From Alphaproteobacteria bacterium (GTDB lineage Bacteria > Pseudomonadota > Alphaproteobacteria > JAIXQD01), in assembly GCA_965246895.1 (NCBI GenBank), contig OZ251993.1:466654-530653 (forward strand): a DNA stretch of 64,000 bases, written 5' to 3'. Both the position numbers and the translations under genes were made by a program. The notes beneath the pieces are model-generated. The model did not search any database, was not told where the DNA came from, and saw nothing but the letters and a program-made list of their open reading frames with translations. This document shows positions 11,231-37,814 of this stretch, piece by piece. Positions within the stretch are counted from its first letter, which is position 1; the number at the start of each line of letters is the position of its first letter.

Positions 11231-11307
<77 letters not shown>

Positions 11308-11380
11308 AATTTGTCAAATATATCAAACATTTAAAAAGCAGCTAATCGCCCTATTGGGATGCTTTTAGTGGCTTTTTCTT

Positions 11381-11408
11381 TTTACGGACGCATACTGGAC
11401 GCACGAGG
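11381..11408 (+). repeat. Putative integrase arm-type site, left copy
   Basis: TTTACGGACGCATACTGGACGCACGAGG, identical to 61582-61609. Confidence 0.8.
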
Positions 11409-11529
11409 GAGAAAACCGCAGTTTGTTATGGCAAACTGTTAGTGGCTTTTCGCCGAACAATTCTCTACATGTATTTGTGAACTCACATTAGGTTGTATTC
11501 TAAATTCATATTTGTCTTGGAGTGTTTTG

Positions 11530-15861: not shown

Positions 15862-16233
15862 ATGCCACAGGCCAGATCATACGAAAGCGATATTAGAGCG
15901 GCAGCAGACGAAGTCATGGGTGAATGCCCGCATGCCTTGCCGCCAGTTTCAGAATTGATGAGCAAGTTCTCGGACATAGACCAGCACCGTGACCAGCTAC
16001 TTAAAATGATGCATGCCAGTAGCCGTTATATGCAGAACATGATTACACCGCTGCAACACAGGTTGCTTTTGGAATTTACCGCTGTCCAAGCTGCCAAATC
16101 AGGCATTGAGCATGAAGAGATACTCGATGAAATCTGTGTGCGGTACATGCTTATGGACGCGCAAGAATTAAAAATCCGCGACTTCTGGGAAGCTCTTAAT
16201 TTTTCTTGGCACTACGCCGAGGGGAAGCTTTAG
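15862..16233 (+). CDS. Hypothetical protein, ORF6C-like C-terminus
   Basis: AAGGA RBS; ends RYMLMDAQELKIRDFWEALNFSW. Confidence 0.55.
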   Translation: MPQARSYESDIRAAADEVMGECPHALPPVSELMSKFSDIDQHRDQLLKMMHASSRYMQNMITPLQHRLLLEFTAVQAAKSGIEHEEILDEICVRYMLMDAQELKIRDFWEALNFSWHYAEGKL

Positions 16234-16669
16234 CGCCGGTCTTTGCTGACTTCGAAGAGAGATTCTGATCTTGGATACTTTCGAACAGATAACGCGTAAT
16301 GCGAACGGCTTCGGTCTTGTCGTTGATGCGGTCACTCAGCATCCGGCTGTATTGGCGCATCAGCTGCTCGACGATCTGTTCGTGACTAAGGAAAGCCAAA
16401 GCATCTGTATTCTGCATCACCCAAAGCATGCAGGCGCCCATGACCTCAAGATTTGGTGTAGGAGTCGAGCTATCTCCGAGCAGACGGCCAACTGGTACGC
16501 CGAGCGCCTTAGCCAGGAGGCTGAGGCTGGCAACTGTGGGGGAGCTGCTTTTGCCGTTAATAATGTCACGGACAAAGGTTTCACCCTTACCAGCCTTAAG
16601 GGACAACTCCCTCATGGTCAGATTGCGCTCTTTCATGAGCTTCGTAAGACTATGACTCAAAACATCCAT
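16196..16669 (-). CDS. XRE-family transcriptional repressor
   Basis: LMKERNLTMRELSLKAG..VRDIINGKSSSPTVASLSLLAKALGV HTH; no peptidase domain. Confidence 0.85.
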   Translation of the reverse strand: MDVLSHSLTKLMKERNLTMRELSLKAGKGETFVRDIINGKSSSPTVASLSLLAKALGVPVGRLLGDSSTPTPNLEVMGACMLWVMQNTDALAFLSHEQIVEQLMRQYSRMLSDRINDKTEAVRITRYLFESIQDQNLSSKSAKTGAKASPRRSAKKN

Positions 16670-16707
16670 AATTATGCATCCTGCAGTTTTTTTATTTGCC
16701 ATGCACG

Positions 16708-16722
16708 GGGGATATATCCCTT
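16708..16722. promoter_or_regulatory. Palindromic operator candidate, copy 1
   Basis: GGGGATATATCCCTT in the divergent promoter region; recurs inverted at 18695-18709. Confidence 0.65.
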
Positions 16723-16764
16723 GCATTTGGTTTTATCCCCTGTTATAACCATAGCGTAATAACC

Positions 16765-17154
16765 ATGTGCAAACAATTAACGAACCGAGAAACGACTGTG
16801 ACAAACGATCAGGATAATACGGAAGAGCCACCATTCAGCCTGCAGCCTGCCAATGACCGCGTTTCAGAACGGCTTGGTCTGGCACTCAAGGGAGTGAGGT
16901 TCTACCAGCAGCATAGCGGCGATGGTCGCGACAAGCTGGAGATCATTGTTGACCTCATGCGCGGGGAAAAAGGTGCAACCGTTGCCGATGTCATCGAGAT
17001 CACTGGCTGGCCGGTTGAGATTGTTAGTTCGACCTTGGCGACGTTAGCCGGTCTCGTTGATGGTGGCGAAGTCCACACTTTAGTCAATGAAACCGGAACA
17101 CATCACACCTACCGCATTAAGGGATGGGACGAGGACGAGCCATCAGAGATTTAG
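16765..17154 (+). CDS. DUF3489-like winged-helix protein
   Basis: KLEIIVDLMRGEKGATVADVIEITGW; similar to the gene at 26198-26521; start uncertain. Confidence 0.65.
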   Translation: MCKQLTNRETTVTNDQDNTEEPPFSLQPANDRVSERLGLALKGVRFYQQHSGDGRDKLEIIVDLMRGEKGATVADVIEITGWPVEIVSSTLATLAGLVDGGEVHTLVNETGTHHTYRIKGWDEDEPSEI

Positions 17155-17225: not shown

Positions 17226-17585
17226 ATGGAACACTTAAGCCAAATAGAGAAAGACATGTTCCGCGAAGTCGCGGCTGTCATGTCGAAATACCAAGATCAA
17301 ACTCGTGAATTTGGCATGTGCCTGGTGCATGAGCATTTTGGCGTGGCTAACGACGAGATTATGCATGAGACCAACGATCCGATCAGCCGTATCCTGATCA
17401 CGAAGCCGGTCAAGATTGCTGAAATGCCTGCAGGTTCACACCCAACGCAATGGAAGATTATCCAAGGCGGAAAAGCCGAACCGACGCAGTGGTGCTGCAA
17501 CGATATCCAGGCCACGCAGTGGTGCTGTGATGATGACATTAAAGCTATTCAATGGTGCTGCGATGACATTAAAGCCGCAGCTTGA
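17226..17585 (+). CDS. Small protein with three C-terminal QWCC repeats
   Basis: AGGAGG RBS; FGMCLVHEHF motif; tail TQWCCNDIQA-TQWCCDDDIKA-IQWCCDDIKAAA. Confidence 0.85.
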   Translation: MEHLSQIEKDMFREVAAVMSKYQDQTREFGMCLVHEHFGVANDEIMHETNDPISRILITKPVKIAEMPAGSHPTQWKIIQGGKAEPTQWCCNDIQATQWCCDDDIKAIQWCCDDIKAAA

Positions 17586-17640
17586 TAGACTGGCGGTGCG
17601 GGCGGCAGGACTTGCCGCCCCATACCAGACGGAGATAGAT

Positions 17641-18630
17641 ATGAAACAACGCATATTATCGGGCGTACAGCCGACCGGCGACCTACATATCGGTAATTAC
17701 ATTGGTGCCTTGTCGGTTTGGACTGAAATGCAGGAGCAGTTCGATAGCCTATTCTGCGTGGTCGACCTGCATGCGATCACTATACCGGAAAGCATCAAAC
17801 CGCAGGAGCTAAAAAGCAAAATGCGGGATGTGGCGGCGCTCTATATTGCCTGCGGCATCGATCCCGATAAGGCAACCATCTTTATCCAGTCGCATGTGCA
17901 GGAACATGCTGAGTTAGCTTGGGTGCTGAATTGCACTACCCCGGTCGGCTGGCTGGAACGCATGACGCAGTTCAAGTCAAAATCCGAAAAGGCCAATAGC
18001 GTCGGGATGGGTCTGTTTGATTATCCAGTGCTTATGGCAGCGGATATCTTGCTCTATGATACGGATGTGGTACCAGTTGGGGATGACCAAAAGCAGCATA
18101 TCGAGCTAACGCGCGATATCGCCCAGCGGTTCAATAACCTCTATGGTGTTGAAGTGCTAAAGGTGCCGCAACCTTTTATCCGCGCAGAGGGTGCCCGCAT
18201 AATGGGGCTAAACGATCCAACGCAGAAGATGAGCAAGAGCGATACCAATCCGAATCACGCCATCAAGCTGCTGGATACGCCGGATGTTATCAAAGGCAAG
18301 TATGCGCGGGCGGTTACTGATAGCAAGTCAGCCTTCGATCCTGAAGATATGGCACCGGGTGTTGCTAACCTCGTCAGCATCATCAAGGTGATGGCAGGTA
18401 GTGCTGGGGAAACCATAGTTGCTGACCTGGTCGGGAAAGGTTACGGATCGCTGAAGAAAGCGGCAACCGATGCCACTGTCGAAAGACTGGAGCCAATCCA
18501 ATCCCGCTTTGCCGAGTTACAGCAACAGCCGGATGAACTGGAGGCGATCCTGCAGCGCGGGGCTGAACGAGCGAGAAGCATTGCACGGCCTAAAATGCAG
18601 CAGGTCAAAGCTGCAGTCGGCCTGGGATAA
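17641..18630 (+). CDS. trpS: Tryptophan--tRNA ligase (prophage-borne copy)
   Basis: SGVQPTG, HIGN, YPVLMAADIL, VPVGDDQKQH and KMSKS; GGAG RBS. Confidence 0.97.
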   Translation: MKQRILSGVQPTGDLHIGNYIGALSVWTEMQEQFDSLFCVVDLHAITIPESIKPQELKSKMRDVAALYIACGIDPDKATIFIQSHVQEHAELAWVLNCTTPVGWLERMTQFKSKSEKANSVGMGLFDYPVLMAADILLYDTDVVPVGDDQKQHIELTRDIAQRFNNLYGVEVLKVPQPFIRAEGARIMGLNDPTQKMSKSDTNPNHAIKLLDTPDVIKGKYARAVTDSKSAFDPEDMAPGVANLVSIIKVMAGSAGETIVADLVGKGYGSLKKAATDATVERLEPIQSRFAELQQQPDELEAILQRGAERARSIARPKMQQVKAAVGLG

Positions 18631-18694
18631 ACAAAGCGAACAGTAACTAGAACTGGTCGAGTTAATCCGGCCAGCCATTAAACACGCCTAGACA

Positions 18695-18709
18695 AAGGGA
18701 TATATCCCC
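18695..18709. promoter_or_regulatory. Palindromic operator candidate, copy 2
   Basis: AAGGGATATATCCCC immediately before the RBS of the GNAT gene. Confidence 0.65.
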
Positions 18710-18721
18710 TAAGGAGACATT

Positions 18722-19288
18722 ATGAGCAAAGATATTCAGGAAAAGTTCAAAGCCAACATACAGGTTATGCGGCTCTGGCCGAGTGACGGAGCTGCCTATG
18801 GTGAGATCCGGAAAATGTCACTGGAGGAGTCACCCAACTCCTTTGCTTATTTAGCAGTAGATGAGGCGCATATGACTGCAGAAGATCATGGCCGCTATAT
18901 CGACAGCGCTGTAGTGCTCGGTGCTAAATACAAAGGCTTTGCCAGCGAACCGCTGATCGGCATTGTGTCGCTCTGTACCTTACCAGGTCGTCTTAAGCAT
19001 ATGTGTGAACTGACGCGCCTCTATGTGCATCCTGATTTCCGTGGCCAGGGTGTATCGAACGCTCTTATGGAGCGCTTTTACAGCGAAGCCAGAACGCATT
19101 GGATGGATGGCTGCAAGCTATCAGTCGCTGAAACTAACGCTGCCGCTTATAGATTTTACCAGCGACACGGGTTTGAGGTTTACGGTAGGCTCGAAGATGA
19201 ATTCAATTCGACTGAAGGCCGTGTTGCAGGCGTGCACATGATTAAGCGGCTGACGTCGCTTAAGTGTGGAAGCCCTGCAAATGTATGA
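18722..19288 (+). CDS. GNAT family N-acetyltransferase
   Basis: RLYVHPDFRGQGVS and NAAAYRFYQRHGF motifs. Confidence 0.92.
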   Translation: MSKDIQEKFKANIQVMRLWPSDGAAYGEIRKMSLEESPNSFAYLAVDEAHMTAEDHGRYIDSAVVLGAKYKGFASEPLIGIVSLCTLPGRLKHMCELTRLYVHPDFRGQGVSNALMERFYSEARTHWMDGCKLSVAETNAAAYRFYQRHGFEVYGRLEDEFNSTEGRVAGVHMIKRLTSLKCGSPANV

Positions 19289-20021
19289 AGTCATAAATCC
19301 TGAGTCTAAAGCATCTGTTGTTTTGCTAGTTGAGCATGCGGGGGCGACAATTCCGGCTGAGCTGGATAACCTCGGCTTACCTGCTGGCCAATTCAATGAA
19401 GATCCGCAGATGTTTTACGACCCAGGATCGCGTGATATGGCTATGCGGATCGGTCAGGCGCTTGGCCTGTCGATCTATTTTGGCCAACTATCCCGCCTAG
19501 TTGTTGATCTCAATCGCGAGGACGACCACACAGATTTAATTAAAGCCAAGTTTCATGGCCGAGACATTCCAGGTAATCAGAACTTGTCAGATAGCGAGCG
19601 CCGGACTCGATTGGAAAAGTATTATAAGCCATTCCATACGGCGCTTCGATCTGATCTAGCAAAACGCCAAGAGGCAGGTGTGTCTACCAAGCTAATCAGC
19701 ATTCATTCGTTTAACGCCGATGTAGCCTTTGCAACTTTTCCTGATCTCCAGCGTGAGCCAGTAGACATAGCGATTCTGTACGATGAAGAGTCTCAGCTAG
19801 TTAGAGATTTTCGGGCGACCATCAAACCAGGCAACTACGCTATTAAAGAAAATTATCCTTACGATCTCAGTGTTATGCAAACGGGTAGCATCTTGCAAAA
19901 CAAAAAGTTGTTTAAATTAGATGCTATAGGCATCGAGATTAATTCAGCACGACTAACCAATGCGGCTGACTTTACGGCTATCCAATCTACGCTACTTCAA
20001 GCTATCAAATTGGTAGTTTAA
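19281..20021 (+). CDS. N-formylglutamate amidohydrolase family protein
   Basis: EHAG, YDPG, SRLVVDLNR, IPGN, YYKPFH, SIHSF, NYPY and IEI motifs. Confidence 0.88.
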   Translation: MYEVINPESKASVVLLVEHAGATIPAELDNLGLPAGQFNEDPQMFYDPGSRDMAMRIGQALGLSIYFGQLSRLVVDLNREDDHTDLIKAKFHGRDIPGNQNLSDSERRTRLEKYYKPFHTALRSDLAKRQEAGVSTKLISIHSFNADVAFATFPDLQREPVDIAILYDEESQLVRDFRATIKPGNYAIKENYPYDLSVMQTGSILQNKKLFKLDAIGIEINSARLTNAADFTAIQSTLLQAIKLVV

Positions 20022-20560
20022 ATCAGCCTGGTGACGCTATTGGTAACCACACCCAAGATCTCGAACTCATCGTTTGCCTTGATCTCAATCGGCTTATACT
20101 TAGCATTTTCCGGCATTAGGTAGGTTTTACCCTTGTGTCTTTTAAGTCGCTTGACGGTGGTTTCGCCATTAACAGAGGCTACCACGATCTTACCGCTCCG
20201 AACTTCAAGAGTGCGATCAACAACTAATGTGTCGCCATCCTGAATACGCGCACCGATCATTGAGTCGCCCTTTACTGGAATTAGAAATGTTTCCTGCGGG
20301 CTTTTAACAAGCCAAGCTGGCAGATCAACCATCTCTTCAATGTATGACTCGGAATGTATCGGCGTACCTGCCGGAACTTTTGCTGCATACAGTGGGATGC
20401 TATAGCCACGCGACGAAATAAATTCACTAACTTTTGAGTGCATACTATTAGGCACACGCATCGGGCTTGTGCGTTCACCAAAGCGACCTGTACCACGCTT
20501 GCGACCCGCGCCAGGACGATTGCCTCCACGCACAACTGAATTTTCCAACGTTCTTTTCAT
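20018..20560 (-). CDS. umuD: UmuD/LexA-like S24 peptidase with N-terminal RGGxRPGAGRK motif
   Basis: VPAG cleavage site, GDSM catalytic Ser, TVKRL catalytic Lys; no umuC in the window. Confidence 0.85.
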   Translation of the reverse strand: MKRTLENSVVRGGNRPGAGRKRGTGRFGERTSPMRVPNSMHSKVSEFISSRGYSIPLYAAKVPAGTPIHSESYIEEMVDLPAWLVKSPQETFLIPVKGDSMIGARIQDGDTLVVDRTLEVRSGKIVVASVNGETTVKRLKRHKGKTYLMPENAKYKPIEIKANDEFEILGVVTNSVTRLI

Positions 20561-20617
20561 CACAACCTCGATTAGCAATTGACGAAACAAGTTTGATTTG
20601 TGTAACACTAATCAAAA

Positions 20618-26636: not shown

Positions 26637-27155
26637 ATGAGCGTATTATCAGTCAGCGCCTATGCACGGCATCGCGGGGTCAGCCATGTGGCAGTCCTCA
26701 AGGCGATCAAAACCGGCAGGATCGTCCGTGATGCAGACGGCACAATCGATGTCGCCAAAGCAGACGCTGCATGGCGCAACAACACCAATATGGCGCAGCA
26801 GCGCAAACCTGAAGCCGAGATCGAGCCGCAGGTAGAAGCAGCAGTGCCGCAGCCGGTCGCGGGCGGGCCGAGTTATGCCCAGAGCCGCGCCGTGCGGGAG
26901 GCCTACAATGCCCGGCTGGCAAAGCTCGATTACGAAGAACGCACCAAGGCAATGGTGCGGATCGATACGGTCAAGGTCGCCTGGTTTAGCATTCTGCGGG
27001 TGCTGCGGGACCGGGTGATGAACCTGCCAGACCGGCTTGGGCCGGTACTAGCATCCGAAACCGACCAGAAGATCGTGCGGGATCTGCTTGAGGCCGAGCT
27101 GCGACAGATCCTCGACGATGCCGCTGATGCAACCCTAACCATAAACACGAACTGA
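26637..27155 (+). CDS. Terminase small subunit-like protein
   Basis: LSVSAYARHRGVSHVAVLKAI HTH; lies immediately before terL. Confidence 0.8.
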   Translation: MSVLSVSAYARHRGVSHVAVLKAIKTGRIVRDADGTIDVAKADAAWRNNTNMAQQRKPEAEIEPQVEAAVPQPVAGGPSYAQSRAVREAYNARLAKLDYEERTKAMVRIDTVKVAWFSILRVLRDRVMNLPDRLGPVLASETDQKIVRDLLEAELRQILDDAADATLTINTN

Positions 27156-27157
27156 CC

Positions 27158-29041
27158 TTGCAAGCTTTACAAGAATGCCTGACGCATGCTGCCCTCGCGC
27201 TGCGTCCCGACCGCCTGTTGTCGGTATCTGGCTGGGCGGACGCAAACAGGTTCCTTTCGCAGACGGCTTCGGGTGAACCGGGGCCGTGGCGAACGGAGCG
27301 GACGCCGTATTTACGCGAGATCATGGACTGCCTGTCACCGAGCAGCCCTGTCGAAAAGGTCGTGTTTATGAAGGGTGCCCAGATCGGCGGTACCGAAGCA
27401 GGCAATAACTGGATCGGCTATGTCATTCACCATGCGCCGGGGCCGATGCTGGCCGTGCAGCCGACCGTCGATATGGCGAAGCGCTGGTCGAAGCAGCGTG
27501 TGTCCAGCCTGATCGAGACAACACCGGCTCTGCGTGACCGCGTGAAGGAAGCGCGGTCGCGGGATAGCGGCAATACAATTCAGAGCAAGGAGTTTCCAGG
27601 CGGCATCTTGGTAATGACGGGTGCCAATAGCGCGACCGGTCTGCGCTCGATGCCCGTGCGCTTCCTGTTCTTAGACGAAGTTGATGCTTATGAGTTTGAT
27701 GTCGACGGTGAAGGCGATCCGGTTGGTCTTGCCAGTCAGCGGACGATCACATTTGCCAATCGCAAGATCTTCCTGGTCTCGACACCAACGATCCAGGGCT
27801 TCAGCCGGATCGAGCTTGAGTACGAGCAGTCGGATCGGCGGCGCTGGTTCGTGCCATGCCCTGAATGCGACGAGTATCAGGTGCTGGACGAGAAACAGTT
27901 GCGCTGGCCATCGGGCGAGCCGGAAAAGGCGCTCTATTTCTGCATTCATTGCGGTTCGGCCATTCCAAGCCATCGTAAGCAGTGGATGAATGCGCGGGGC
28001 GAATGGCGGGCCGAAGCATCGGGTTTGGGTTTAGCAGCTGGCTTTCATTTGTCAGGCCTGAACAGCCCGTGGCTGTCATGGGCGCAGATCGCGGAACGCA
28101 AGGTTGCCGCTAAAGACGATGCGGCCATGAAGGTTTACGTCAATACCATAGAGGCCCGCACCTGGACTGAGTCAGGTGAAGCACCCGAGTGGCAGCGGCT
28201 ATATGATCGGCGCGAGGATTATAGGATTGGTGAAGTACCTGCGGGCGGTCTCTTCCTGACGGCAGGCGTCGACGTGCAGAAAGATCGCCTTGAGCTTGAG
28301 ATCGTGGCATGGGGCCGTGATCGTGAAAGCTGGTCGATAGACTTCCGGGTATTGCCTGGCGATCCGGCCAAGGCGGAGGTCTGGGCAGCGATGGACAGTT
28401 TGTTGGGCGAGACGTTCACTCACGCTAACGGCAACAGTCTGCCGATTATGAAGCTGGCCATCGACACCGGCTATTCGACGCAGGAGGTTTATGATTGGGT
28501 GCGAAAACAGCAGTCAGACCGCGTACTGGCGGTCAAAGGCGTTGAGCGCCTGAGTGCGGCCATCGGCTCACCCAGCCATATGGATGTGACCAGCAAAGGG
28601 AAACGTAAGCGCCGGGGTTTGCTGGTCTGGCCGGTCGGATCGTCGTTCAGCAAATCCGAGCTATATGGCTGCCTGCGGAAAGACAAACCCACGGATGATG
28701 AAACGGAAGCGGGGAAAAGCTATCCAGCCGGGTACTGCCACTTCCCTAAACATGGCGAAGAATACTTTAAGCAGCTGACCGCCGAGCGGCTAGTGACGGT
28801 CAAAGACCGGCGCGGCTTTCCGCATCGTGAGTGGCGGAAGCTGCGCGAACGTAACGAAGCATTGGACTGCCGGGTTTATGCCCGCGCTGCAGCCTCAGCT
28901 GTTGGGATTGATCGGTTTAACGAGTCCGTGTGGCTAAAACTTGAAGTGGCTTTAGGCAAGTTGCCTGTTGAAGAGCCGCAACAGCAGGTGGCAAGCAGTA
29001 AAGTGTTGCAGCGGCGGACAATTGGCAGCAGCTATATTTAA
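27158..29041 (+). CDS. Terminase large subunit (GpA family)
   Basis: KGAQIGGTE, FLDEVD, STPT, GVDVQ and NEALDC motifs. Confidence 0.96.
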   Translation: MQALQECLTHAALALRPDRLLSVSGWADANRFLSQTASGEPGPWRTERTPYLREIMDCLSPSSPVEKVVFMKGAQIGGTEAGNNWIGYVIHHAPGPMLAVQPTVDMAKRWSKQRVSSLIETTPALRDRVKEARSRDSGNTIQSKEFPGGILVMTGANSATGLRSMPVRFLFLDEVDAYEFDVDGEGDPVGLASQRTITFANRKIFLVSTPTIQGFSRIELEYEQSDRRRWFVPCPECDEYQVLDEKQLRWPSGEPEKALYFCIHCGSAIPSHRKQWMNARGEWRAEASGLGLAAGFHLSGLNSPWLSWAQIAERKVAAKDDAAMKVYVNTIEARTWTESGEAPEWQRLYDRREDYRIGEVPAGGLFLTAGVDVQKDRLELEIVAWGRDRESWSIDFRVLPGDPAKAEVWAAMDSLLGETFTHANGNSLPIMKLAIDTGYSTQEVYDWVRKQQSDRVLAVKGVERLSAAIGSPSHMDVTSKGKRKRRGLLVWPVGSSFSKSELYGCLRKDKPTDDETEAGKSYPAGYCHFPKHGEEYFKQLTAERLVTVKDRRGFPHREWRKLRERNEALDCRVYARAAASAVGIDRFNESVWLKLEVALGKLPVEEPQQQVASSKVLQRRTIGSSYI

Positions 29042-29167
29042 CTAATACAGAGGGTTAAACTTGCAAGAAAGATTAACTTGAAATTAAGGAGGTTAGCTCT
29101 AATATAACTGTTAAGGATTGGGCTTATCCCGGTCGACGAAAGGGCTTTAGACTTTGTCTGGAGCCCT

Positions 29168-29908
29168 TTAGTTTTCTGGAAAATATTTGCGATCCGACGG
29201 TTTCGTTCGGATGATGTCAAAAGCTCTATTATCTTGTTGTGGCCTCAAATATTTTAGAGCTATTGGACGTACAATTAGATCTGCCAACTGTAAACCAACT
29301 GAATTACTCTTTTTGTCGGCGCAGATCAGTTCAAAAGGGATTTCCGTGAAATCGGGTGCTCTATAGCCCCAGCGATTCTGATTGTCGCAAATTCTACGGA
29401 ATTCCAGCTCTAACTCTCTATCTTCTTTAAGGCCACGGCCTTCAATGATGATATGAGTGGTTTTACCCGCTTGGCCTTCGCGCTTTAGAAAGTCTAGCGT
29501 CTTCTCCATGCAAAACCGCATCCCAATCTCATAAGGGCTGAATGGGTTAGCGTAACGCTCTTTCAGCTTATTCTTGTCAATTACAGAAGTGACATGCCTA
29601 AAATCGGCTGATGTCATAACAGCTGTTAAGTCATCTATAAATGAACTTCGCAGAGTCGGGCTGCGGCGCAGTAAGCCAAAGGCACCTTTTTCTTTGCGGA
29701 TCTCATGCTCATGCAGAACAACTTGATCGTGCCCCCAATATTTGATTTTCAAGGCTTGGACTGCGGGAACGATATTGTTCACATAGTCAGATTTCTTAAT
29801 CAGGATAAAGCTCAGCGCAAAGACTGGAAAATCAGGGTCGATTGAGGAAAGACCATGATCGCCGCTTTCATCTACAAATACTAAGTAATCACCAAAATCA
29901 GCTGACAT
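29168..29908 (-). CDS. DUF3800 family protein (RNase H-like fold)
   Basis: VFVDESGDH, LHEHEI and GLQLADL motifs; AT-rich antisense insert. Confidence 0.85.
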   Translation of the reverse strand: MSADFGDYLVFVDESGDHGLSSIDPDFPVFALSFILIKKSDYVNNIVPAVQALKIKYWGHDQVVLHEHEIRKEKGAFGLLRRSPTLRSSFIDDLTAVMTSADFRHVTSVIDKNKLKERYANPFSPYEIGMRFCMEKTLDFLKREGQAGKTTHIIIEGRGLKEDRELELEFRRICDNQNRWGYRAPDFTEIPFELICADKKSNSVGLQLADLIVRPIALKYLRPQQDNRAFDIIRTKPSDRKYFPEN

Positions 29909-30009
29909 TTACGTTAAACCAAAAAGAAGAAAAAGCCCTTGGCCTCAGCCAACGGCAGTGATGGTGAAATATACCATATGCACAGACTACTTAGCAATAA
30001 AGGCCCAAG

Positions 30010-30216
30010 ATGACTTACACGATCTCCCAACGCGACGCCCTGCGCCAAGCTATCGCCAGTGGTGTGCTGCGCCTGTCGTATGACGGCAAGAGCATCGAAT
30101 ACCGGAGCATGGCAGAACTAAAGACCGCGCTGAACGAGGTCGAGGCAGGGCTATCGCGTGACAATGGTAAAGCCCAGACCCGCCGCATCCTGATCGTCGC
30201 CAACAAAGACCTCTAA
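30010..30216 (+). CDS. Head-tail joining protein (gpW-like)
   Basis: AIASGVLRLSYDGKSIEYRSMAEL; between terL and portal. Confidence 0.85.
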   Translation: MTYTISQRDALRQAIASGVLRLSYDGKSIEYRSMAELKTALNEVEAGLSRDNGKAQTRRILIVANKDL

Positions 30217-30229
30217 AACTGGACTCCCC

Positions 30230-31750
30230 ATGAACGTATTTTCACGCCTCGGTCACGCGGCGCGCTTCGCCATGTCCGGACGTTTGTCGGCATCGGCATT
30301 CGGCAGCGGGTTTGAGGGAGCCATGCGGAACCGCCGCCTGGCTGCCTGGCGGGCGACCGAAGAGAATATCAATAGCCTGCTAGTTGCGGACGGCGATACT
30401 CTGCGGGCGCGGGCGCGGCAGACTGTGCGCTCTAATCCTTTTGCATCGAATGCGGCGGGCAGCTTTGTTGCCAACGCCGTTGGGGCGGGGATCAAGCCAT
30501 CCAGCTTGATCCCCGATACCGACCTTAAAGACCAGATCCAGCGGCTCTGGCTGCAGTGGACGGACGAAGCGGATGCCGATGGGTTGACCGACTTCTACGG
30601 TCTGCAGGCATTAGCTGCGCGAGCCATGTTCGAGGCGGGAGAATGTTTTGTGCGGTTCCGGCCGCGATTGCCGCAGGACGGTCTGTCCGTGCCGCTACAG
30701 GTACAGCTGCTTGAATCCGAGCATCTGCCGTTCGGCAAGAATGAAATAGCGTCCGGTGGCAACCAGATCCGCGCGGGGATCGAGTTCGACGCCATTGGTC
30801 GCCGTGTGGCCTATCACTTTTACCGCACCCATCCAGGCGACGGCACTGTGCAGAAAACGCGCGGGGAGATCGTCCGGGTGCCTGCAAGCGAGGTGCTGCA
30901 TCTCTACCGTCCGGATCGGCCTGGCCAGATCCGGGGTGTGCCGTGGATCTCGCCCGCATTGGTGAAGCTCTACCTGCTCGACCAGTACGACGATGCGGAA
31001 CTTGACCGCAAGAAGGTCGCGGCGCTCTTCGCCGGCTTTATTACCAAGACCTCGCCGGAGGATAATCTTTTAGGCGAAGGCATACCTGACCCACTGGGCG
31101 CATCAGTGGCCGGTCTGTCGCCAGGCATGATGCAGGTGCTGCTGCCGGGCGAAGATGTAAAGTTCGCCGAGCCAGCGGATGTTGGCGGCTCATACGAGCT
31201 GTTCCAGTACCGCATGCATCTTGCGGTCGCCGCGGCGCTCGGCATGCCGTACATGAATGTTTCCGGCGATCTTAAAGCCGCCAACTATTCCAGCATCCGG
31301 TCGGGGACGGTGGAATTCCGCCGCCGCCTTGACCAGTTCCAGCACACGACCCTGATCTTCCAGTTCTGCCGCCCCGTGTGGCAGCGCTGGCTGGACACGG
31401 TCGTGCTGGATGGCTCGGTTGCGCTGCCTGACTATCGGAACCAGCGCCGCGATTTCCAGGCGGTCAAATGGATCACGCCGAAATGGGAATGGGTCGATCC
31501 TCTGAAAGACCGGCAGGCCGAAAAGATTGCACAGGAATGCGGCTGGAAAGCGCCGTCCGATATTATCGAGGCTGAAGGCTATGACGTGGACGAGACATTC
31601 AACCGGATTGCCTCAGACCAGCAACGCGCCCGCGACCTTGGCATCAAACTGGGCGATCCCAGCAAGGTCGAGCCTGCAGCAGCTGCATCACCTCAAATGC
31701 CTGAGCCGAATGCTGAAGAAACCGTACCGGCAGAACAGGAGGCCGCATGA
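30230..31750 (+). CDS. Portal protein, lambda family
   Basis: RPGQIRGVPW, ANYSSIR and WVDPLKD motifs. Confidence 0.95.
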   Translation: MNVFSRLGHAARFAMSGRLSASAFGSGFEGAMRNRRLAAWRATEENINSLLVADGDTLRARARQTVRSNPFASNAAGSFVANAVGAGIKPSSLIPDTDLKDQIQRLWLQWTDEADADGLTDFYGLQALAARAMFEAGECFVRFRPRLPQDGLSVPLQVQLLESEHLPFGKNEIASGGNQIRAGIEFDAIGRRVAYHFYRTHPGDGTVQKTRGEIVRVPASEVLHLYRPDRPGQIRGVPWISPALVKLYLLDQYDDAELDRKKVAALFAGFITKTSPEDNLLGEGIPDPLGASVAGLSPGMMQVLLPGEDVKFAEPADVGGSYELFQYRMHLAVAAALGMPYMNVSGDLKAANYSSIRSGTVEFRRRLDQFQHTTLIFQFCRPVWQRWLDTVVLDGSVALPDYRNQRRDFQAVKWITPKWEWVDPLKDRQAEKIAQECGWKAPSDIIEAEGYDVDETFNRIASDQQRARDLGIKLGDPSKVEPAAAASPQMPEPNAEETVPAEQEAA

Positions 31751-33039
31751 TGCTACCCCATATCGCAGGGCGACTGTTCAACACGCCTCTGCTGATCGCC
31801 CGCGCCAAGCTCGATACCCTGCTGACGGTCTTAAAACCCCGTCTAAGCGGGGAGCCTGTGCCGTATTCGGATAAGCCGGAGCGGCGCAGTTTCGATGTGA
31901 CCACGGACGGCATCGCCATCCTGCCGATCCTGGGCACCCTTGTGCGCCGGACGGGCGGGCTTGATGCCTTCAGCGGGCTGACGAGCTACGCCACCATCAG
32001 CGCCCAGCTACAGGACGCTTTAAACGACAATGGCGTGAAGGCCATCCTGCTGGATATCGACAGTCCAGGCGGCGAAGCAGGCGGTGTGTTCGATCTGGCC
32101 GACGAGATTTACGCGGCGCGTAGCATCAAGCTGATCTGGGCGGTCGCTAACGAGGAGGCCTTCTCGGCGGCTTACGCCATTGCAGCGGCGGCGGAGTGCA
32201 TCTACCTGTCGCGCACGGCAGGGGTCGGCTCGATTGGCGTCATCGCCGTGCATCTCGACCAGAGCCAGGCCGAGGCGGATGCGGGCCTGGTCTATACAGC
32301 GATTTTCGCAGGCGACCGCAAGAACGATCTCTCGCCGCACGAGCCACTGGCCGATCCCGCCCGCGTCTCGCTGCAGGCGGAGGTCGACCGCATCTATGAA
32401 CTATTTGCAGGAACGGTAGCGAAGATGCGGTCGCTGTCGGTCGAAGCCGTCAAGGGCACCGAGGCCGATGTCTTCATGAGCGGGAATGCCATCGAGATCG
32501 GCTTGGCCGACCGGCTCGGCACCTTCGACGATGCGCTGGCGGCCCTGCGGGGAAGCCTGCTCACGCCACCGACCCAATTCCGTATCACGTCAACCACACG
32601 AAAGAGAGCCAAACGCATGACTAAGCCAGACCAGCCCTTAAATCCGGAAACCGAGCCGAAAGACCTTCTCGGCGACGATGCTTTGATCGATCCTGCGGAT
32701 ATCGAGGAAGACGAAATGCCGCCCCTCGTTACAGCGTCCTATTCCGCGTTGAGGGCGCAGGCCACGCGGGAAGCGATGGGCTACGTGTCCGAGATTACCG
32801 AACTTTGCATTCTGGCTGGCTTGCCGGACAAGGCGACCGACATGATTGCGCGGGGTGTTCCGGTCGCGGAAGCGCGGAAGGCTCTGCTCGAAGCCAGGGC
32901 CATTACGTCAGAGGCGACCGCGATTGCAGGGCAGATCCCGCAGGCGAAGCCTGAACGAGGTAAAGCGCGGATCGATACCTCCGCCATCTATGCCAAACGC
33001 AACGCCTTCGCAGGCCATAACAAGAAGGAGAGCAACTAA
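31747..33039 (+). CDS. S49 head maturation protease (gpC-like, with scaffold tail)
   Basis: DIDSPGG, AFSAAY and GSIGV motifs. Confidence 0.93.
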   Translation: MMLPHIAGRLFNTPLLIARAKLDTLLTVLKPRLSGEPVPYSDKPERRSFDVTTDGIAILPILGTLVRRTGGLDAFSGLTSYATISAQLQDALNDNGVKAILLDIDSPGGEAGGVFDLADEIYAARSIKLIWAVANEEAFSAAYAIAAAAECIYLSRTAGVGSIGVIAVHLDQSQAEADAGLVYTAIFAGDRKNDLSPHEPLADPARVSLQAEVDRIYELFAGTVAKMRSLSVEAVKGTEADVFMSGNAIEIGLADRLGTFDDALAALRGSLLTPPTQFRITSTTRKRAKRMTKPDQPLNPETEPKDLLGDDALIDPADIEEDEMPPLVTASYSALRAQATREAMGYVSEITELCILAGLPDKATDMIARGVPVAEARKALLEARAITSEATAIAGQIPQAKPERGKARIDTSAIYAKRNAFAGHNKKESN

Positions 33040-33680
33040 TGACGACTGTCTATGAAGGCCAGCATACGGGCGAATTTATCGTCAGTGAAGCGAACGGCAC
33101 GCAATCGCGCGATACGGTGACCATCGCTTCAGGCGAAGTCTTGAAGCCAGGCCATGTGCTGGGCCGCACCAAGGTCGCAACGGCATTAGGCGCGGCGGCG
33201 TCCGGCAATACCGGGAACGGCGCTATTTCCGCCGTCACGGCGGGCGGCGCGGTCAAAGACGGCATTTATCTTGCAGTCTGCGTCGAGCCAGGGTCGAACG
33301 GCGGCATCTTTGAGGTCGAAGGGCCGGACGGGATCGTGGTCGGGTTCGCCACGGTCGGCACGCCGTTCAATACCGAGATCGGCTTCACGATCACCGATGG
33401 CAGCGCCGACTTTATCGCGGGCGACCGCTTCGCCATCACGGTCACGACCACGCTCGATAAATACAAGGCGTACAACCCGGCCAATTCGGACGGCTCGCAG
33501 ACGGCTTACGGCGTGCTGTATGCGGCGGTCGATGCCAGCGGCGGCGATACGGATGGCGTGGCTCTGCTGCGGGATGCCGAGATCAATGCCGGGGAGATCA
33601 TCTGGTTTGCCGGTGCCACCGATCTGCAGAAAGCGGCAGGTCTGCGCCAGCTAAGACGGCAAGGCATTCTCGCCCGCTAA
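33039..33680 (+). CDS. Head decoration protein
   Basis: FIVSEANGTQSRD..PGHVLG..DGSQTAYGVLY; precedes the capsid gene. Confidence 0.85.
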   Translation: MTTVYEGQHTGEFIVSEANGTQSRDTVTIASGEVLKPGHVLGRTKVATALGAAASGNTGNGAISAVTAGGAVKDGIYLAVCVEPGSNGGIFEVEGPDGIVVGFATVGTPFNTEIGFTITDGSADFIAGDRFAITVTTTLDKYKAYNPANSDGSQTAYGVLYAAVDASGGDTDGVALLRDAEINAGEIIWFAGATDLQKAAGLRQLRRQGILAR

Positions 33681-33702
33681 ACGACCATCACAATCACATG
33701 AC

Positions 33703-33725
33703 GGCGGCTTTTGGCCGCCTTTTTT
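33703..33725 (+). terminator. Hairpin plus T-tract between decoration and capsid genes
   Basis: GGCGGC-TTTTG-GCCGCC-TTTTTT. Confidence 0.6.
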
Positions 33726-33740
33726 ATTGGAGAAACGCTC

Positions 33741-34757
33741 ATGCCAGCTTTGGATATCTTTAACAACGATGCCTTCTCGCTCGTCACCCTGACGGACAGC
33801 ATTAACAATATGCCCTTCGTGCCAGGCCGGGTCGGCCAGCTCGGTCTGTTTATCGAGCGCGGGGTGCCGACAACCAGCGTCATGATCGAAGAAAAGGACG
33901 GCGTGCTGTCGCTGATCGAATCGACGCTGCGAGGTGCGCCCGCCAAGCAGAACATCAACAATAAGCGCCGTGCACGCTCCCTAGTGATCCCGCATATCGC
34001 CGAGGAGGATACGATCCTGGCCGACGAGGTGCAGAACGTCCGCGCCTTTGGGAGCGAAGACACGCTCGAAGGTGTCCAGTCGGTGGTCAACGACCGGCTG
34101 GCGACCATGGCCATGAAGCACGACGCGACCCTGGAGCATTTGCGGATCGGTGCCATCAAAGGCCAGATCCTCGATGCTGATGGCACCACCATCCTCTACG
34201 ACCTGTTCGACGAGTTCGGGGTCAGCCAGCAGGCCGAGGTCGATTTCGATCTCGACAATAATGCGCCGACGCCAGGCGCGGTGCGTAAGAAATGTCACGA
34301 TGTCGTCCGCAAGGTCGAGGACGAGCTGGGCGTGGCGCCTTACGATCACATCCACTGCTTCTGCTCGCCGGAATTCTTCGACGATCTGGTCTCGCATCCC
34401 GAAGTGACCGAAGCCTATAACCGCTTTCAGGAAGGCTCGTTCCTGCGGGCGGGGTTTGCGCGGAAGTCCTTTGTCTATGCCGATATCGTCTTCGAGGAAT
34501 ATCGCGGCAAGGTCGGCAGCGTCGACTTTATCGCGGCCAACAAGGCGCACTTTTTTCCGGTCGGCGTGCCGGGCCTGTTCCGGCAGTACAACGCGCCCGC
34601 CGACTTCGTCGAAACGGTCAATACCATCGGCCTGCCGCGCTATGCCAAGCAAGCCGTCGATACCGACTTCGGGCGCTGGGTGAGATTGCACACGCAGTCG
34701 AACCCGCTGCCGGTCTGCATCAAGCCGCGCACGCTGATCAAGGGCAAGCGTACCTGA
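33741..34757 (+). CDS. Major capsid protein (lambda gpE family)
   Basis: DIFNNDAFS, TLEHLRIGAIKG, APAD..ETVNT.G.P.YAK and QSNPL motifs. Confidence 0.95.
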   Translation: MPALDIFNNDAFSLVTLTDSINNMPFVPGRVGQLGLFIERGVPTTSVMIEEKDGVLSLIESTLRGAPAKQNINNKRRARSLVIPHIAEEDTILADEVQNVRAFGSEDTLEGVQSVVNDRLATMAMKHDATLEHLRIGAIKGQILDADGTTILYDLFDEFGVSQQAEVDFDLDNNAPTPGAVRKKCHDVVRKVEDELGVAPYDHIHCFCSPEFFDDLVSHPEVTEAYNRFQEGSFLRAGFARKSFVYADIVFEEYRGKVGSVDFIAANKAHFFPVGVPGLFRQYNAPADFVETVNTIGLPRYAKQAVDTDFGRWVRLHTQSNPLPVCIKPRTLIKGKRT

Positions 34758-34759
34758 TC

Positions 34760-35083
34760 ATGTCCATCAGCTTTATGATCGACCAGCTCTTTGCCGATCC
34801 CGTGATCGGCAAAGATGCCGTCTATACGCTCAAAGACACGAGCGTCGGCTTCCCTGTGCGCGTGACCCTCAACCAGCCGGACGAGATCGTCGGGTTCGGC
34901 GCGGGCCAGTTGCAGGGCGTCTCGACGCTGATCGATGTGCGGGTCAGCGAAGTGGCCTCTCCGCAGGCAGGCGACAGCCTGACCATCGGTTCTGTCAGCT
35001 ATAGCGTACAGGGGGAGCCTCGCGCCGACCGTGAGCGGCTGGTCTGGCGGCTTTCTGCTTATGCGGCAGCCTATGCGACTTAA
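34760..35083 (+). CDS. Head-tail joining protein
   Basis: Position after capsid; PQAGD..DRERLVW pattern. Confidence 0.75.
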   Translation: MSISFMIDQLFADPVIGKDAVYTLKDTSVGFPVRVTLNQPDEIVGFGAGQLQGVSTLIDVRVSEVASPQAGDSLTIGSVSYSVQGEPRADRERLVWRLSAYAAAYAT

Positions 35084-35714
35084 GGCGGCGCTCACAGGCA
35101 GCCTAAAGGCCTATATGGCGGCGGAACTCAAAGCGGCGGAACAGGCGGTCGCGGGCGGGGTCAAAGGCGCGACGGACGGGTTGAAGGACGAATTGCGCGG
35201 CCAGGTCACCAAGGCAGGTCTCGGCGACAAGCTGGCCAAAAGCTGGCGCGGCGAGGTTTACCCGCGCAACGGCCAGAGCATCAATGCGGCGGGCTTCGTC
35301 TATACCAAAGCGCCGCAGATCATCAGCGCCTTTGCTTTCGGCGCGACGATCCGCGGCAAGAGCGGACGCTACCTGGCGATTCCGACCAAGCATGTGCCGC
35401 GCCGCAAGGGTAAGCCGATCTCGCCTGCCGATTTTGCCAGCGGCAATCAGAAGCTGGTGTTCGTGCCGCCACACGGTCGTCGCAAGGTCGCGCTGCTGGT
35501 GCTGGAAAACCAGCGGCTGACATCGAAAGGCCGGGCGCGGGGCGCGTCCGACCGCGCCATCAGCAAAGGCAAGGTCGCCACCGTCATCATGTTCATTCTG
35601 GTGCCGCAGGTGTCGCTGAAGAAGCGCCTCGATATCGACACCGCATCGAACAAATGGATCGGGCGACTGCCGGAACTGGTCAACGCCAGCTGGCCCCAAA
35701 AGACAAACGCGTAA
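35073..35714 (+). CDS. DUF6441-like neck/tail completion protein
   Basis: GLKDELRGQV..YLAIPT..FILVPQV pattern; position. Confidence 0.75.
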   Translation: MRLKAALTGSLKAYMAAELKAAEQAVAGGVKGATDGLKDELRGQVTKAGLGDKLAKSWRGEVYPRNGQSINAAGFVYTKAPQIISAFAFGATIRGKSGRYLAIPTKHVPRRKGKPISPADFASGNQKLVFVPPHGRRKVALLVLENQRLTSKGRARGASDRAISKGKVATVIMFILVPQVSLKKRLDIDTASNKWIGRLPELVNASWPQKTNA

Positions 35715-35735
35715 AACACCTGACAAGGCGGATTC

Positions 35736-36164
35736 ATGAGCCAACGCGAAGCGATCATGCTGGCGTTGTTTGCAACACTGCAGACAATTAGCGGCCCAAA
35801 GGTGCTGCGGAACGAAAGCCTGCCGGAGACGGTACCGCCGGGAGGGTTGCTGATCCTCCGCGACGGCGATGCGGGCGAGCCGGAAGTTATGCTGTCGCCG
35901 CTGTCCTACTATTGGGAGCGCAGGGCTGAGGTCGAGGTGATCGTTACCGCTGCCGCTGCCACCACGCGCGACCAGCTGCTAGACGATCTTATTACGTCCA
36001 TCGGCGCTGCGCTAGCCGTCGACCGCACGCTAGGCGGCAGCTGCGATTACGCAGCGGCCTTTGCGCCGCAGACCAGTGAAGTCACAGGCGACGGCATGCA
36101 GCCGTTCCGCGGCGCAATCGTTCCCATCGATCTGATCTACACCAGCGCCGATGCGCTGGGCTGA
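35736..36164 (+). CDS. Putative tail terminator
   Basis: ILRDGDAGEPEVMLSPL and DRTLGG; position before the tail tube. Confidence 0.7.
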   Translation: MSQREAIMLALFATLQTISGPKVLRNESLPETVPPGGLLILRDGDAGEPEVMLSPLSYYWERRAEVEVIVTAAAATTRDQLLDDLITSIGAALAVDRTLGGSCDYAAAFAPQTSEVTGDGMQPFRGAIVPIDLIYTSADALG

Positions 36165-36198
36165 GAACTAAACAAACCCACTAACAAAGGAGTTATTC

Positions 36199-37143: not shown

Positions 37144-37472
37144 TCACCCTGAACCTGAAACGTGAGCCTTACTGGTTGGATCTGGTCGATGGCGTGCGGC
37201 TCTTTGTGAAGCCTGCCTCCTCCGCTCTCATCATGGCGGCGCGGATCTCGGCGCTGCTGGTCAGCGGGCCGGAGCGCGGGGCGGAACTGCTGAAGCGACT
37301 GGCCGTGGCCGCCATCCTCGATTGGGAGGGTGTTGGTAACGAGGCGGGCGACAAAGCTGAGCCAACCCCTGAACGGGTAGAAGCCCTACTGGAACTCTAT
37401 CCGGTCGCCGAGGCCTTCGAGCGGCTCTACCTGCTGCCCGCCATGCTACTGGAGACGGAAAAAAACGACTGA
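37140..37472 (+). CDS. Tail assembly chaperone (gpG-like)
   Basis: ILDWEGVG; ends EKND over a slippery site. Confidence 0.8.
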   Translation: MITLNLKREPYWLDLVDGVRLFVKPASSALIMAARISALLVSGPERGAELLKRLAVAAILDWEGVGNEAGDKAEPTPERVEALLELYPVAEAFERLYLLPAMLLETEKND

Positions 37473-37813: not shown

Positions 37814-37814
37814 A

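Follow-up and report, generated by a model that had tools for sequence, protein, structure and literature searches.

The window, a 64,000-nucleotide stretch of an alphaproteobacterial genome that was analysed as a whole, carries four intact open reading frames (ORFs) between positions 17226 and 20021. All lie on the forward strand, just where the original prediction placed them and in the order it gave. They encode a protein with Gln-Trp-Cys-Cys repeats (the QWCC protein, P0002, 119 aa, 17226..17585), a tryptophanyl-tRNA synthetase (TrpRS, P0001, 329 aa, 17641..18630), a GNAT N-acyltransferase (188 aa, 18722..19288) and an amidohydrolase of the N-formylglutamate amidohydrolase (FGase) family, which ends at 20021 and starts at 19281 (246 aa, ATG) or at 19266 (251 aa, GTG). 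The sequence caggagga precedes the ATG of the QWCC protein. Gaps of 55-91 nt separate the first three genes, the GNAT and FGase genes overlap, and a terminator scan called no terminator between any of the four. Since the FGase start overlaps the GNAT stop, translational coupling is suggested for this pair.

Immediately upstream, a DUF3489-like small protein is encoded on the same strand (16696..17154; PF11994 E 1.6e-5, 25.3 bits, which is under the cut-off of 29.5). A CI/Cro-type HTH regulator (16196..16726; HTH_3 E 2.9e-10; PHROG transcriptional repressor and regulator families) lies on the reverse strand, divergent from the operon, and an S24 (LexA/UmuD/CI-like) autopeptidase protein, also on the reverse strand, is convergent with the operon end (20018..20608; Peptidase_S24 E 3.3e-35; PHROG UmuD-like and repressor families). 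In a viral contig collection, the S24 protein had relatives at no more than 39% identity, and the AAA_25 protein of the element had none.

The four genes belong to the early region of a ~50 kb lambda-like temperate prophage integrated at a tRNA-fMet gene. A temperate prophage had been predicted, and the element has the integrase, the att repeats at a tRNA gene and the complete packaging, head and tail module of an integrated lambda-like phage. The tRNA-fMet gene (11231-11307) closes the rRNA operon. Its 3' half is the attL core (11262..11307, forward strand), and a partial copy of this half forms the attR core (61735..61780, forward strand); the two make up a 46-nt direct repeat with 93% identity. 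The 25-nt att core has three matches in the window against none expected (0 chance matches in 100 shuffles). A 43-nt direct repeat, 91% identical, lies beside attL (11375..11417, forward strand) and beside the integrase (61576-61618), and its copies presumably are integrase arm sites. The tyrosine integrase itself (60144..61562, reverse strand) has an Arm-DNA-binding domain (Phage_integrase E 9.9e-23; Arm-DNA-bind_3 E 2e-16). The packaging, head and tail module (26637..51700, forward strand) includes terminase GpA, lambda portal, S49 protease, head decoration protein D (HDPD), capsid E, tape-measure, Phage-tail_3 and Rcc01698_C.

Short reads of run X1, probably the window's own sample, yielded a 6,487 bp contig that corresponds to 16710-23196 without differences and thereby connects the operon with the replication genes of the phage. 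In a variant contig of this run, 13955-15405 is swapped for 2,590 other letters; thus, the left arm of the element varies. A junction from 17976 to 22161 in one X1 contig was set aside, as its shorter side has only 20 letters.

The prophage-encoded TrpRS

The phage TrpRS, which had been predicted to be complete, matches TIGR00233 over model positions 1-328 of 328 (361.7 bits, cut-off 176.75) and PF00579 with an E value of 3.8e-77. It contains the HIGN and KMSKS signatures. In an alignment of 68 TrpRSs, 59 columns are invariant, and the phage enzyme has the consensus residue in every one of them. The closest solved structures are bacterial TrpRSs (E 1e-95 to 1e-99). Judged by its sequence, this protein is an intact, canonical TrpRS and presumably an active enzyme.

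The host has a TrpRS of its own. Its trpS gene (G000:C1:710955-711983) is itself bona fide (TIGR00233 262 bits), and the product is 38% identical to the phage enzyme. In a tree of 51 rows, the window TrpRS forms one clade with P0005-P0010 and P0012 (support 100/100), apart from the clade of nine genomes of the same class (98/94); the host trpS is long-branched and also lies apart from the window TrpRS clade. These data bear out two predictions: the phage gene comes on top of the host trpS, and it is no captured piece of the chromosome. The phylogenetic comparison with the host copy, which had been proposed as a check, places the phage TrpRS in a small clade apart from it. The phage TrpRS is foreign in origin, apparently acquired horizontally, and the host TrpRS is of a very different type. 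Genome, metagenome and viral contig collections contained relatives of the phage enzyme only at 57% identity or less. A phage collection gave 38 records, all below 60% identity, many of them fragments without annotation or bacterial contigs catalogued as phage.

A divergent TrpRS could serve in counter-defence or resistance by replacing or shielding an attacked host enzyme, while the GNAT and the FGase-family protein detoxify an aminoacyl-type inhibitor. The attacker could be an indolmycin- or chuangxinmycin-type TrpRS inhibitor, or a TrpRS-phosphorylating toxin such as the HipT kinase. Auxiliary TrpRS genes are reportedly resistance determinants in Streptomyces (Kitabatake 2002; Vecchione & Sello 2010), and at 38% identity between the phage and host enzymes an agent could hit one and leave the other untouched. 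In the TrpRS of indolmycin producers, the resistance change is His to Asn at the DLHAIT histidine. However, the phage enzyme keeps this His (in the sequence VVDLHAIT), as had been predicted, and differs in this from the self-resistance TrpRSs of indolmycin and chuangxinmycin producers; with the canonical residue in each invariant column, it shows no sign of a resistance-type change. Its neighbours are phage regulators, the GNAT, the FGase-family protein and replication genes, and no inhibitor biosynthetic cluster was found among the ORFs scanned. As for a toxin, HipT of the HipBST system targets TrpRS (PMC10627512), but neither a HipA_C search nor PADLOC found a HipA_C-family kinase in the host genome. 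PADLOC defence models gave zero matches to the four operon proteins, and the neighbouring ORFs contained no DUF1778/RHH antitoxin of the kind that would mark the GNAT as a TacT/AtaT/ItaT-type toxin. We consider a role in counter-defence or resistance decidedly unlikely.

The QWCC protein, the GNAT and the amidohydrolase

The first gene of the operon had been described as coding for a Trp-repeat protein. Q-W-C-C indeed occurs three times within the last 32 residues (88-119), with one TQWK further upstream, but the repeated unit is better described as a Cys-containing C-terminal motif of a wider family. Pfam, NCBIfam and PHROG models gave no match to the protein at the thresholds used, a phage collection gave none either, and the ESM Atlas gave no usable match. 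Searches of genome, metagenome and viral contig collections with the protein or its alignment returned no locus. Two close homologues were found in 5.8e9 proteins, and the family comprises 313 cluster representatives at E<=1e-3. This family is previously undescribed and has no Pfam or NCBIfam model.

Ten residues are conserved in at least 90% of 150 family sequences: F29, G30, H35, H37, F38, E44, E48, R55, W76 and C90. An AF2 model based on the 150-sequence alignment has a pLDDT of about 95 over residues 1-90 and predicts a folded domain whose last strand contains the first QWCC; a model based on three sequences only (pLDDT 41) was unusable. Among 152 tails, 146 contain Cys and 26 have at least three His, and exact repeats are present in eight, e.g., LTGCKQDKCK in P0319. 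The tail is hypervariable, Cys-rich and often His-rich, and its motif is tripled in the window's lineage. From the conserved His-x-His, Glu, Glu, Arg and Cys residues and the Cys/His tail, we read the QWCC protein as a candidate metal- or redox-active protein.

A-type Fe-S carriers (IscA, SufA and HesB-like proteins), which come closest to the QWCC domain in structure, likewise combine a small beta-rich domain with a Cys motif at the C-terminus. The structural match to these does not rise above noise (Z 2.1-3.3; Foldseek E at least 0.5), and because sequence similarity is absent, we do not claim membership. Foldseek with the domain model found no clear fold relative (E at least 0.5), and VIA gave a best Z of 3.3 with no standout. 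With a confident predicted fold that has no clear structural relative, and with hypervariable Cys/His tails, the family is a biochemical target in its own right. A complex prediction for TrpRS and the QWCC protein scored 0.00; run without controls, it carries no weight either way.

Members of the QWCC family occur on plasmids, adjoining an integron integrase (one locus) and in mobile regions. None of the other family loci examined has a TrpRS, and no neighbouring enzyme is shared across phyla. The nearest to a recurrent neighbour was a DUF6185 protein in two Streptomyces plasmids.

The GNAT scores above the cut-offs of Acetyltransf_7 (54 bits versus 27), Acetyltransf_1 (51.4 versus 20.7), Acetyltransf_10 and FeeM (30.7 versus 27), and matches the acetyltransferase family phrog_1249. 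Its FRGQGVS segment fits Q/RxxGxG/A, the CoA-binding pattern of GNATs. The last protein of the operon belongs to PF05013 (93.7 bits, cut-off 28.9), the N-formylglutamate amidohydrolase family; Atu2144 (2odf), of the same family, is its closest solved structure (E 7e-24), and the columns invariant among eight relatives are kept. It is not a HutG equivalog (TIGR02017 32.3 bits, cut-off 278.75) and, unlike HutG, has no hut genes alongside among the ORFs scanned. Its small phage-linked clade shares no more than 40% identity with the other PF05013 members found, and the plasmid relatives of both GNAT and FGase are generic, with only about 30% identity. The arrangement suggests a translationally coupled pair of a putative N-acyltransferase and a putative N-acyl/formyl amidohydrolase, whose substrate, at a guess, would be tryptophan or another amino-acid derivative.

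The original prediction included the idea of a Trp-peptide biosynthesis and immunity module. On this reading, or on a tRNA-dependent variant of it, the QWCC tail would be a ribosomal precursor or scaffold, and the other three genes would modify the tail or another target by way of Trp-tRNA from the dedicated TrpRS. The family does have a RiPP-type pattern, i.e., a conserved N-terminal part followed by a hypervariable, sometimes multi-copy, Cys-containing C-terminal part, and one member, L187, immediately follows a GNAT. In addition, phage Mu Mom is a GNAT that transfers glycine from Gly-tRNA, which shows that a phage GNAT can use charged tRNA (PMC13219725). However, the supposed leader is predicted with confidence to fold into a globular domain, with the first QWCC inside it, and not to be disordered. 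The GNAT next to L187 is unrelated to the window GNAT beyond the superfamily (25% identity, E 0.13), and the window GNAT retains the canonical motif for acyl-CoA and is recognised by models of ordinary acetyltransferases. No maturase or other dedicated RiPP modifying enzyme is shared by the other family loci examined, which lie in unrelated contexts, the integron integrase locus among them. Around the operon, the predicted absence of radical SAM and exporter genes held among the ORFs scanned, which also contained no LanB/PEARL, YcaO or peptidase gene and no other maturase or biosynthetic enzyme. The module idea was not supported, and both the precursor reading and its tRNA-dependent variant seem very improbable.

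Recurrence of the four-gene association

Homologues of the QWCC protein (P0004, 73% identity), the TrpRS (P0005, 88%) and the FGase-family protein (P0127, 51%) each have just one ENA contig listed, 16,768 bp long in all three cases, from which we infer that they share one contig. Elsewhere, the flanks of 161 TrpRS loci (at most 57% identity; 2.26 Mb) showed no association with the other operon genes, and the association was also absent at 29 FGase loci of the same class. Evidence for co-selection thus comes from a narrow lineage, in effect one other contig. The viral contig collection had no match to the FGase-family protein. In the neighbourhood analysis suggested with the original prediction, three of the genes recur, apparently together, and the association was not found outside this lineage.

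These findings bear on the possibility that the genes are unlinked morons in a variable early-region slot, with the TrpRS either neutral or an addictive duplicate of an essential gene that stabilises the element. Base composition is patchy along the left arm of the element (operon genes have a GC content of 0.45-0.53, the structural module 0.589), the segment of this arm that is swapped in the variant X1 contig points the same way, and QWCC-family genes turn up in many mobile settings that are unrelated to one another. Stabilisation by an essential-gene copy has been proposed for plasmid cysS and D6 glnS in the passages of PMC6799933 on these genes. On the other hand, three of the four genes apparently share a second contig although their proteins have diverged by 12-49%, and the overlap, short gaps and terminator-free layout of the operon also argue for linkage. 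With an intact host trpS, the cell is not at present addicted to the phage copy. Overall, we judge it unlikely that the four genes are unlinked cargo.

A full TrpRS in a temperate phage had been called unusual. Full aminoacyl-tRNA synthetases are indeed rare there but have a precedent: as described in the same passages of PMC6799933, all D6-like plasmid prophages carry glnS, which was proposed to be fitness or maintenance cargo. In both cases a complete synthetase is a temperate-phage moron beside the host's own copy, with the benefit unproven. The D6-like case involves GlnRS on a P1/D6 plasmid prophage, whereas here a TrpRS is carried by an integrated lambda-like prophage; also unlike D6 glnS as presented there, the window TrpRS is only 38% identical to the host's, falls in a different clade and is part of an apparent four-gene operon. 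A literature search found no description of a prophage TrpRS, which is not proof of absence.

Tryptophan supply in the host

Searches of the host genome (G000, 95.5% complete) gave no match to trpB (TIGR00263) or trpD (TIGR01245). There was also no match to trpA (TIGR00262) or to the TrpE-family model Chorismate_bind (PF00425) in G000 or in G001, its only family relative. In controls, each of these searches was positive in 14 of 14 genomes. The host is probably a tryptophan auxotroph, with the missing trp genes falling short of proof at 95.5% completeness, and the cell probably depends on scavenged tryptophan.

We tentatively favour the possibility that the four genes are early-region prophage cargo, as opposed to host genes or a biosynthetic cluster, and that the TrpRS secures tRNA-Trp charging in this probable auxotroph. 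Through the foreign enzyme, the phage or lysogen would gain another, independent route to charged tRNA-Trp. It would keep up the supply of Trp-tRNA when tryptophan is scarce or the host TrpRS is impaired, possibly during phage growth or in the lysogen. We infer here a functional link among the four genes, the timing of their expression and the benefit they bring; the auxotrophy argument covers the TrpRS, not the QWCC protein, GNAT or FGase. Counting against this preferred explanation, Trp makes up 1.18% of residues in prophage ORFs versus 1.14% in host ORFs; the phage proteins are not Trp-rich, and the phage has no special tryptophan demand. Temperate phages rarely carry synthetase genes, whose benefit is still to be demonstrated. 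The combination of a foreign TrpRS on a prophage with a host in which no tryptophan pathway was detected ties an auxiliary translation gene to a nutritional weakness of the host in a way that can be put to the test.

Tryptophan starvation might also be sensed within the operon. In Streptomyces coelicolor, trpRS1 encodes an auxiliary, inducible TrpRS and is preceded by an ORF with Trp codons and then a hairpin. The window is similar in that a second TrpRS is present beside a housekeeping one, and an upstream ORF with Trp codons (at 17490, 17520 and 17553) is followed by a hairpin, which could sense Trp-tRNA. This strong GC-rich hairpin (17590..17628, forward strand) starts 5 nt after the QWCC stop codon (17583-17585), before the trpS start, and the 191-nt stretch has a fold z of -2.29. 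Low levels of charged tRNA-Trp would stall ribosomes at the three evenly spaced Trp codons of the QWCC tail; stalling would alter the folding of the hairpin, which may be conserved, and more phage TrpRS would be made in a host unable to make tryptophan. Such a bypass of tryptophan starvation with a built-in sensor, in which the QWCC ORF doubles as an attenuator leader, strikes us as a long shot. Unlike in trpRS1, the upstream ORF codes for a conserved 119-aa protein with a predicted fold and not for a short leader peptide, the gene is phage-borne rather than chromosomal, the hairpin has no U-tract, and the enzyme shows no resistance-type substitution. The terminator scan did not call the hairpin, and an Rfam scan of 11000-22000 found only 5S rRNA and two tRNAs, with no T-box or other leader. 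If the attenuator reading were true, a folded, functional protein would also serve as an attenuator leader. Read in the trpS frame, the hairpin core encodes VRAAGLAAP, and the same peptide is present in the N-terminal extension of the TrpRS homologue P0005.

The operon and its prophage

A tRNA-Met gene lies at the end of an rRNA operon, and a 93%-identical copy of its 3' 46 nt (11262-11307) lies at 61735-61780. On the inner side of each element end is a 43-nt repeat, and the 25-nt att core had no chance matches in 100 shuffles. Between the repeats are genes for a GpA terminase, a lambda-type portal, an S49 protease, decoration protein D, capsid E, and tape-measure and tail proteins; a tyrosine integrase with an arm-binding domain is encoded at 60144-61562. 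The element, about 50.5 kb long, is a lambda-like prophage.

Within its early region is an operon of four ORFs, all on one strand at 17226-20021, exactly as the original prediction described them. The first (17226-17585; ATG preceded by caggagga) encodes the QWCC protein of 119 aa, with the C-terminal end ...PTQWCCNDIQATQWCCDDDIKAIQWCCDDIKAAA. The second (17641-18630) encodes a full-length tryptophanyl-tRNA synthetase (TrpRS; PF00579, E 3.8e-77; TIGR00233, 361.7 bits against a cut-off of 176.75) that contains the HIGN and KMSKS motifs and, as had been noted, retains the His of DLHAIT. The third (18722-19288) is a GNAT exceeding the cut-offs of Acetyltransf_7, _1 and _10, and its stop codon is overlapped by the fourth, an FGase-family ORF that starts at 19266 or 19281 and ends at 20021. 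The FGase-family protein matches PF05013 with 93.7 bits but falls far below the cut-off of the HutG equivalog (32.3 bits vs 278.75). GC content is 0.45 to 0.53 in the operon genes, 0.589 in the structural module and 0.549 in the whole genome.

The operon is flanked on one side by a divergent HTH_3 and DUF3489-like pair (16196-17154) and on the other by a convergent S24 LexA/UmuD/CI-like gene (20018-20608). A 6,487-bp contig from the public short-read run X1, which is probably derived from the same sample as the window, spans 16710-23196 with zero differences; the operon is thus physically joined to phage replication genes. The observed gene group is real and beyond chance.

The prophage TrpRS and the host

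The TrpRS had been proposed to be additional to a host copy, and this was borne out. The host genome (1.69 Mb, 95.5% complete) has another, valid trpS at C1:710955-711983 (TIGR00233, 262 bits), whose product is 38% identical to the prophage TrpRS. The sole genome of the same family, G001, contains the host-type trpS alone (37% identical to the prophage protein). A search of 5.8 billion proteins returned a tight set of six relatives, P0005-P0010, with 73-88% identity and on contigs of 1-19 kb, beyond which identity falls to 61% or less. A maximum-likelihood tree (51 rows) joins the prophage TrpRS, this set and another relative, P0012, in a clade with 100/100 support, apart from the clade of nine genomes of the same class (98/94) and from the very long branch of the host protein. 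Judged by these comparisons, the prophage TrpRS is an extra, foreign copy. At each of 59 columns invariant among 68 TrpRSs it has the consensus residue, and no loss-of-function or resistance-type change is visible at these positions.

Searches for trpB and trpD in the host genome, and for trpA and the TrpE/PabB chorismate-binding family in both this genome and G001, found none of these genes, and each search was positive in 14 of 14 control genomes. From its gene content, therefore, the host lineage, which has a small genome (1.7 Mb), looks tryptophan-auxotrophic. The prophage is not Trp-rich (1.18% Trp in its proteins vs 1.14% in host ORFs).

The best-supported reading, which we hold tentatively, is that the operon is auxiliary cargo, whose TrpRS would secure charging of tRNA-Trp in a Trp-dependent host. 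Aminoacyl-tRNA synthetase cargo on temperate phages is already known: like the prophage TrpRS, glnS is reported as such cargo on D6-like plasmid prophages (PMC6799933), and the operon is a further case. What it adds is a host for which searches turned up no tryptophan pathway. It is unlikely that the phage TrpRS replaces a host TrpRS attacked by an inhibitor or toxin. HipT is reported to target TrpRS (PMC10627512); however, the host genome yielded no HipA-family gene, and neither the operon proteins nor the host genome gave a PADLOC match.

Between the QWCC and TrpRS genes, a GC-rich hairpin (17590-17628) starts 5 nt past the QWCC stop codon, and the 191-nt stretch containing it folds more strongly than shuffles (z -2.29). 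Its core, read in the trpS frame, encodes VRAAGLAAP, and the hairpin is probably conserved, since an identical peptide recurs in the extended N-terminus of P0005. It has no U-tract and was not called by a terminator scan, which placed a promoter-like site at 17563-17591; an Rfam search found no leader element. The layout of QWCC ORF, hairpin and trpS resembles that of Streptomyces coelicolor trpRS1, for which an attenuator has reportedly been described. The Q, the W and both C of every QWCC unit are conserved in the three clade sequences, which shows that selection acts on the QWCC peptide and not on Trp codons alone.

The QWCC protein and its family

The second addition from this operon is a small-protein family that has not been described before. 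Searched with a profile, a set of 1.84 billion cluster representatives yielded 313 proteins at E≤1e-3, including 39 at E≤1e-10; most members are 90-130 aa long, and the aligned part corresponds to residues 3-93. Among 150 aligned sequences, F29, G30, H35, H37, F38, E44, E48, R55, W76 and C90 are at least 90% conserved. No Pfam or NCBIfam model matched more than two of 40 members scanned, and these matches were weak (E 0.13). With the 150-sequence alignment, AF2 modeled residues 1-90 of the QWCC protein as one helix and four strands (pLDDT ~95), placing the first QWCC in the last strand and leaving the later repeats disordered. Comparison of this fold gave no standout match, with several IscA/SufA-like chains at Z 2.1-3.3 only.

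The tails are hypervariable. Cys occurs in the last 40 residues of 146 of 152 sequences counted; 50 contain CC, 39 an aromatic residue followed by CC, 62 CxnC without CC, 26 at least three His, and eight have internal repeats that are exact. Outside the clade, the closest relative is P0211, with the C-terminal end QYCCTDIHPMQYCCTDVHAAA; its tail has QYCC twice.

The family is rare (6/401 genomes of the host's class and 5/401 of a phylum sample; the host genome itself is in both counts), and its contexts are heterogeneous and mobile. Members adjoin a Macro-domain gene and large unknown genes (L180); directly follow an unrelated GNAT, with an Hsp70-TIR fusion and a resolvase near (L187); lie amid transposase and primase genes (L189); sit between an upstream MerR regulator and a downstream MFS transporter on a plasmid of Planococcus; or, on two plasmids from Streptomyces (L192, L224), neighbor a DUF6185 protein. 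On plasmid pTs485 of Candidatus Thiodictyon syntrophicum (L223; NZ_CP020372.1, 83237-83632), a member is a few kilobases from an integron integrase; its surroundings include hypothetical genes and a DarT toxin gene.

We infer that the small QWCC protein is self-sufficient and probably has metal or redox activity; it does not resemble a precursor that depends on a dedicated maturase. The original prediction of a Trp-peptide biosynthesis and immunity module found no positive support. By analogy with Mom, the GNAT of phage Mu, as presented in PMC13219725, the operon might encode precursor modification or a tRNA-dependent pathway, which we regard as improbable.

Linkage of the genes and other prophage contents

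Two proteins, P0003 (92%) and P0004 (73%), are close homologues of the QWCC protein. The FGase has three such homologues (80%, 61% and 51%), with none other above 40%; genes of its family are widespread in the host's class, occurring in 162 of 301 sampled genomes (one of them, G240, unpublished) with at most 38% identity to the prophage protein. Because the sole ENA contig listed for P0004, for the TrpRS relative P0005 (88%) and for the FGase homologue P0127 (51%) has in each case a length of 16,768 bp, we take the three to share one contig. At the loci searched by tblastn, the association is absent outside this narrow lineage: the flanks of 161 TrpRS loci (2.26 Mb) contained no FGase, GNAT or QWCC homologue, and 29 FGase loci no TrpRS, GNAT or QWCC homologue. 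That the four genes are unlinked morons, or the TrpRS an addiction-type duplicate, is rather unlikely, although it ranks next after auxiliary cargo for tRNA-Trp charging.

Several other features of the element were observed. The prophage itself contains a second complete tRNA-Met gene of the initiator type (13914-13990, - strand), whose 3' end matches the att core except at one of 25 nt; the host genome has five tRNA-Met(CAT) genes in total. Between attL and this tRNA, 11512-13899 (+; GC 0.476) encodes a 795-aa protein whose C-terminal half matches the PEP-utilising enzyme family, far under every PPDK, PEP-synthase and PtsI cut-off, and whose N-terminal ~270 residues match no Pfam family. At 14069-15260 (- strand), an XRE-type HTH protein (220 aa) overlaps a 205-aa ORF with no Pfam match and, by eye, a GNAT-like RGNGAMG motif. 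This slot varies among related phages, since a minor X1 contig carries 2,590 other letters in place of 13955-15405.

Also in the early region, 23950-25176 (+) encodes a 408-aa fusion of a ParB N-terminal domain to an N6/N4 DNA methylase, adjoining a DUF6362 protein. A DUF3800 gene (29168-29908, - strand), oriented against the terminase and portal genes on either side of it and lying in a GC trough of 0.427, looks like a moron. The space from the tail genes to the integrase (52134-60182, +) is occupied by a block of large cargo genes with low GC (0.40-0.48); these encode proteins of 848 aa (with a VWA_2 domain), 896 aa (without a family) and 493 aa (weakly similar to ankyrin repeats). The host assembly has a second contig (C2; 41,156 bp, 0.56 GC) with its own tRNA-Met; this contig could be a plasmid or another phage.
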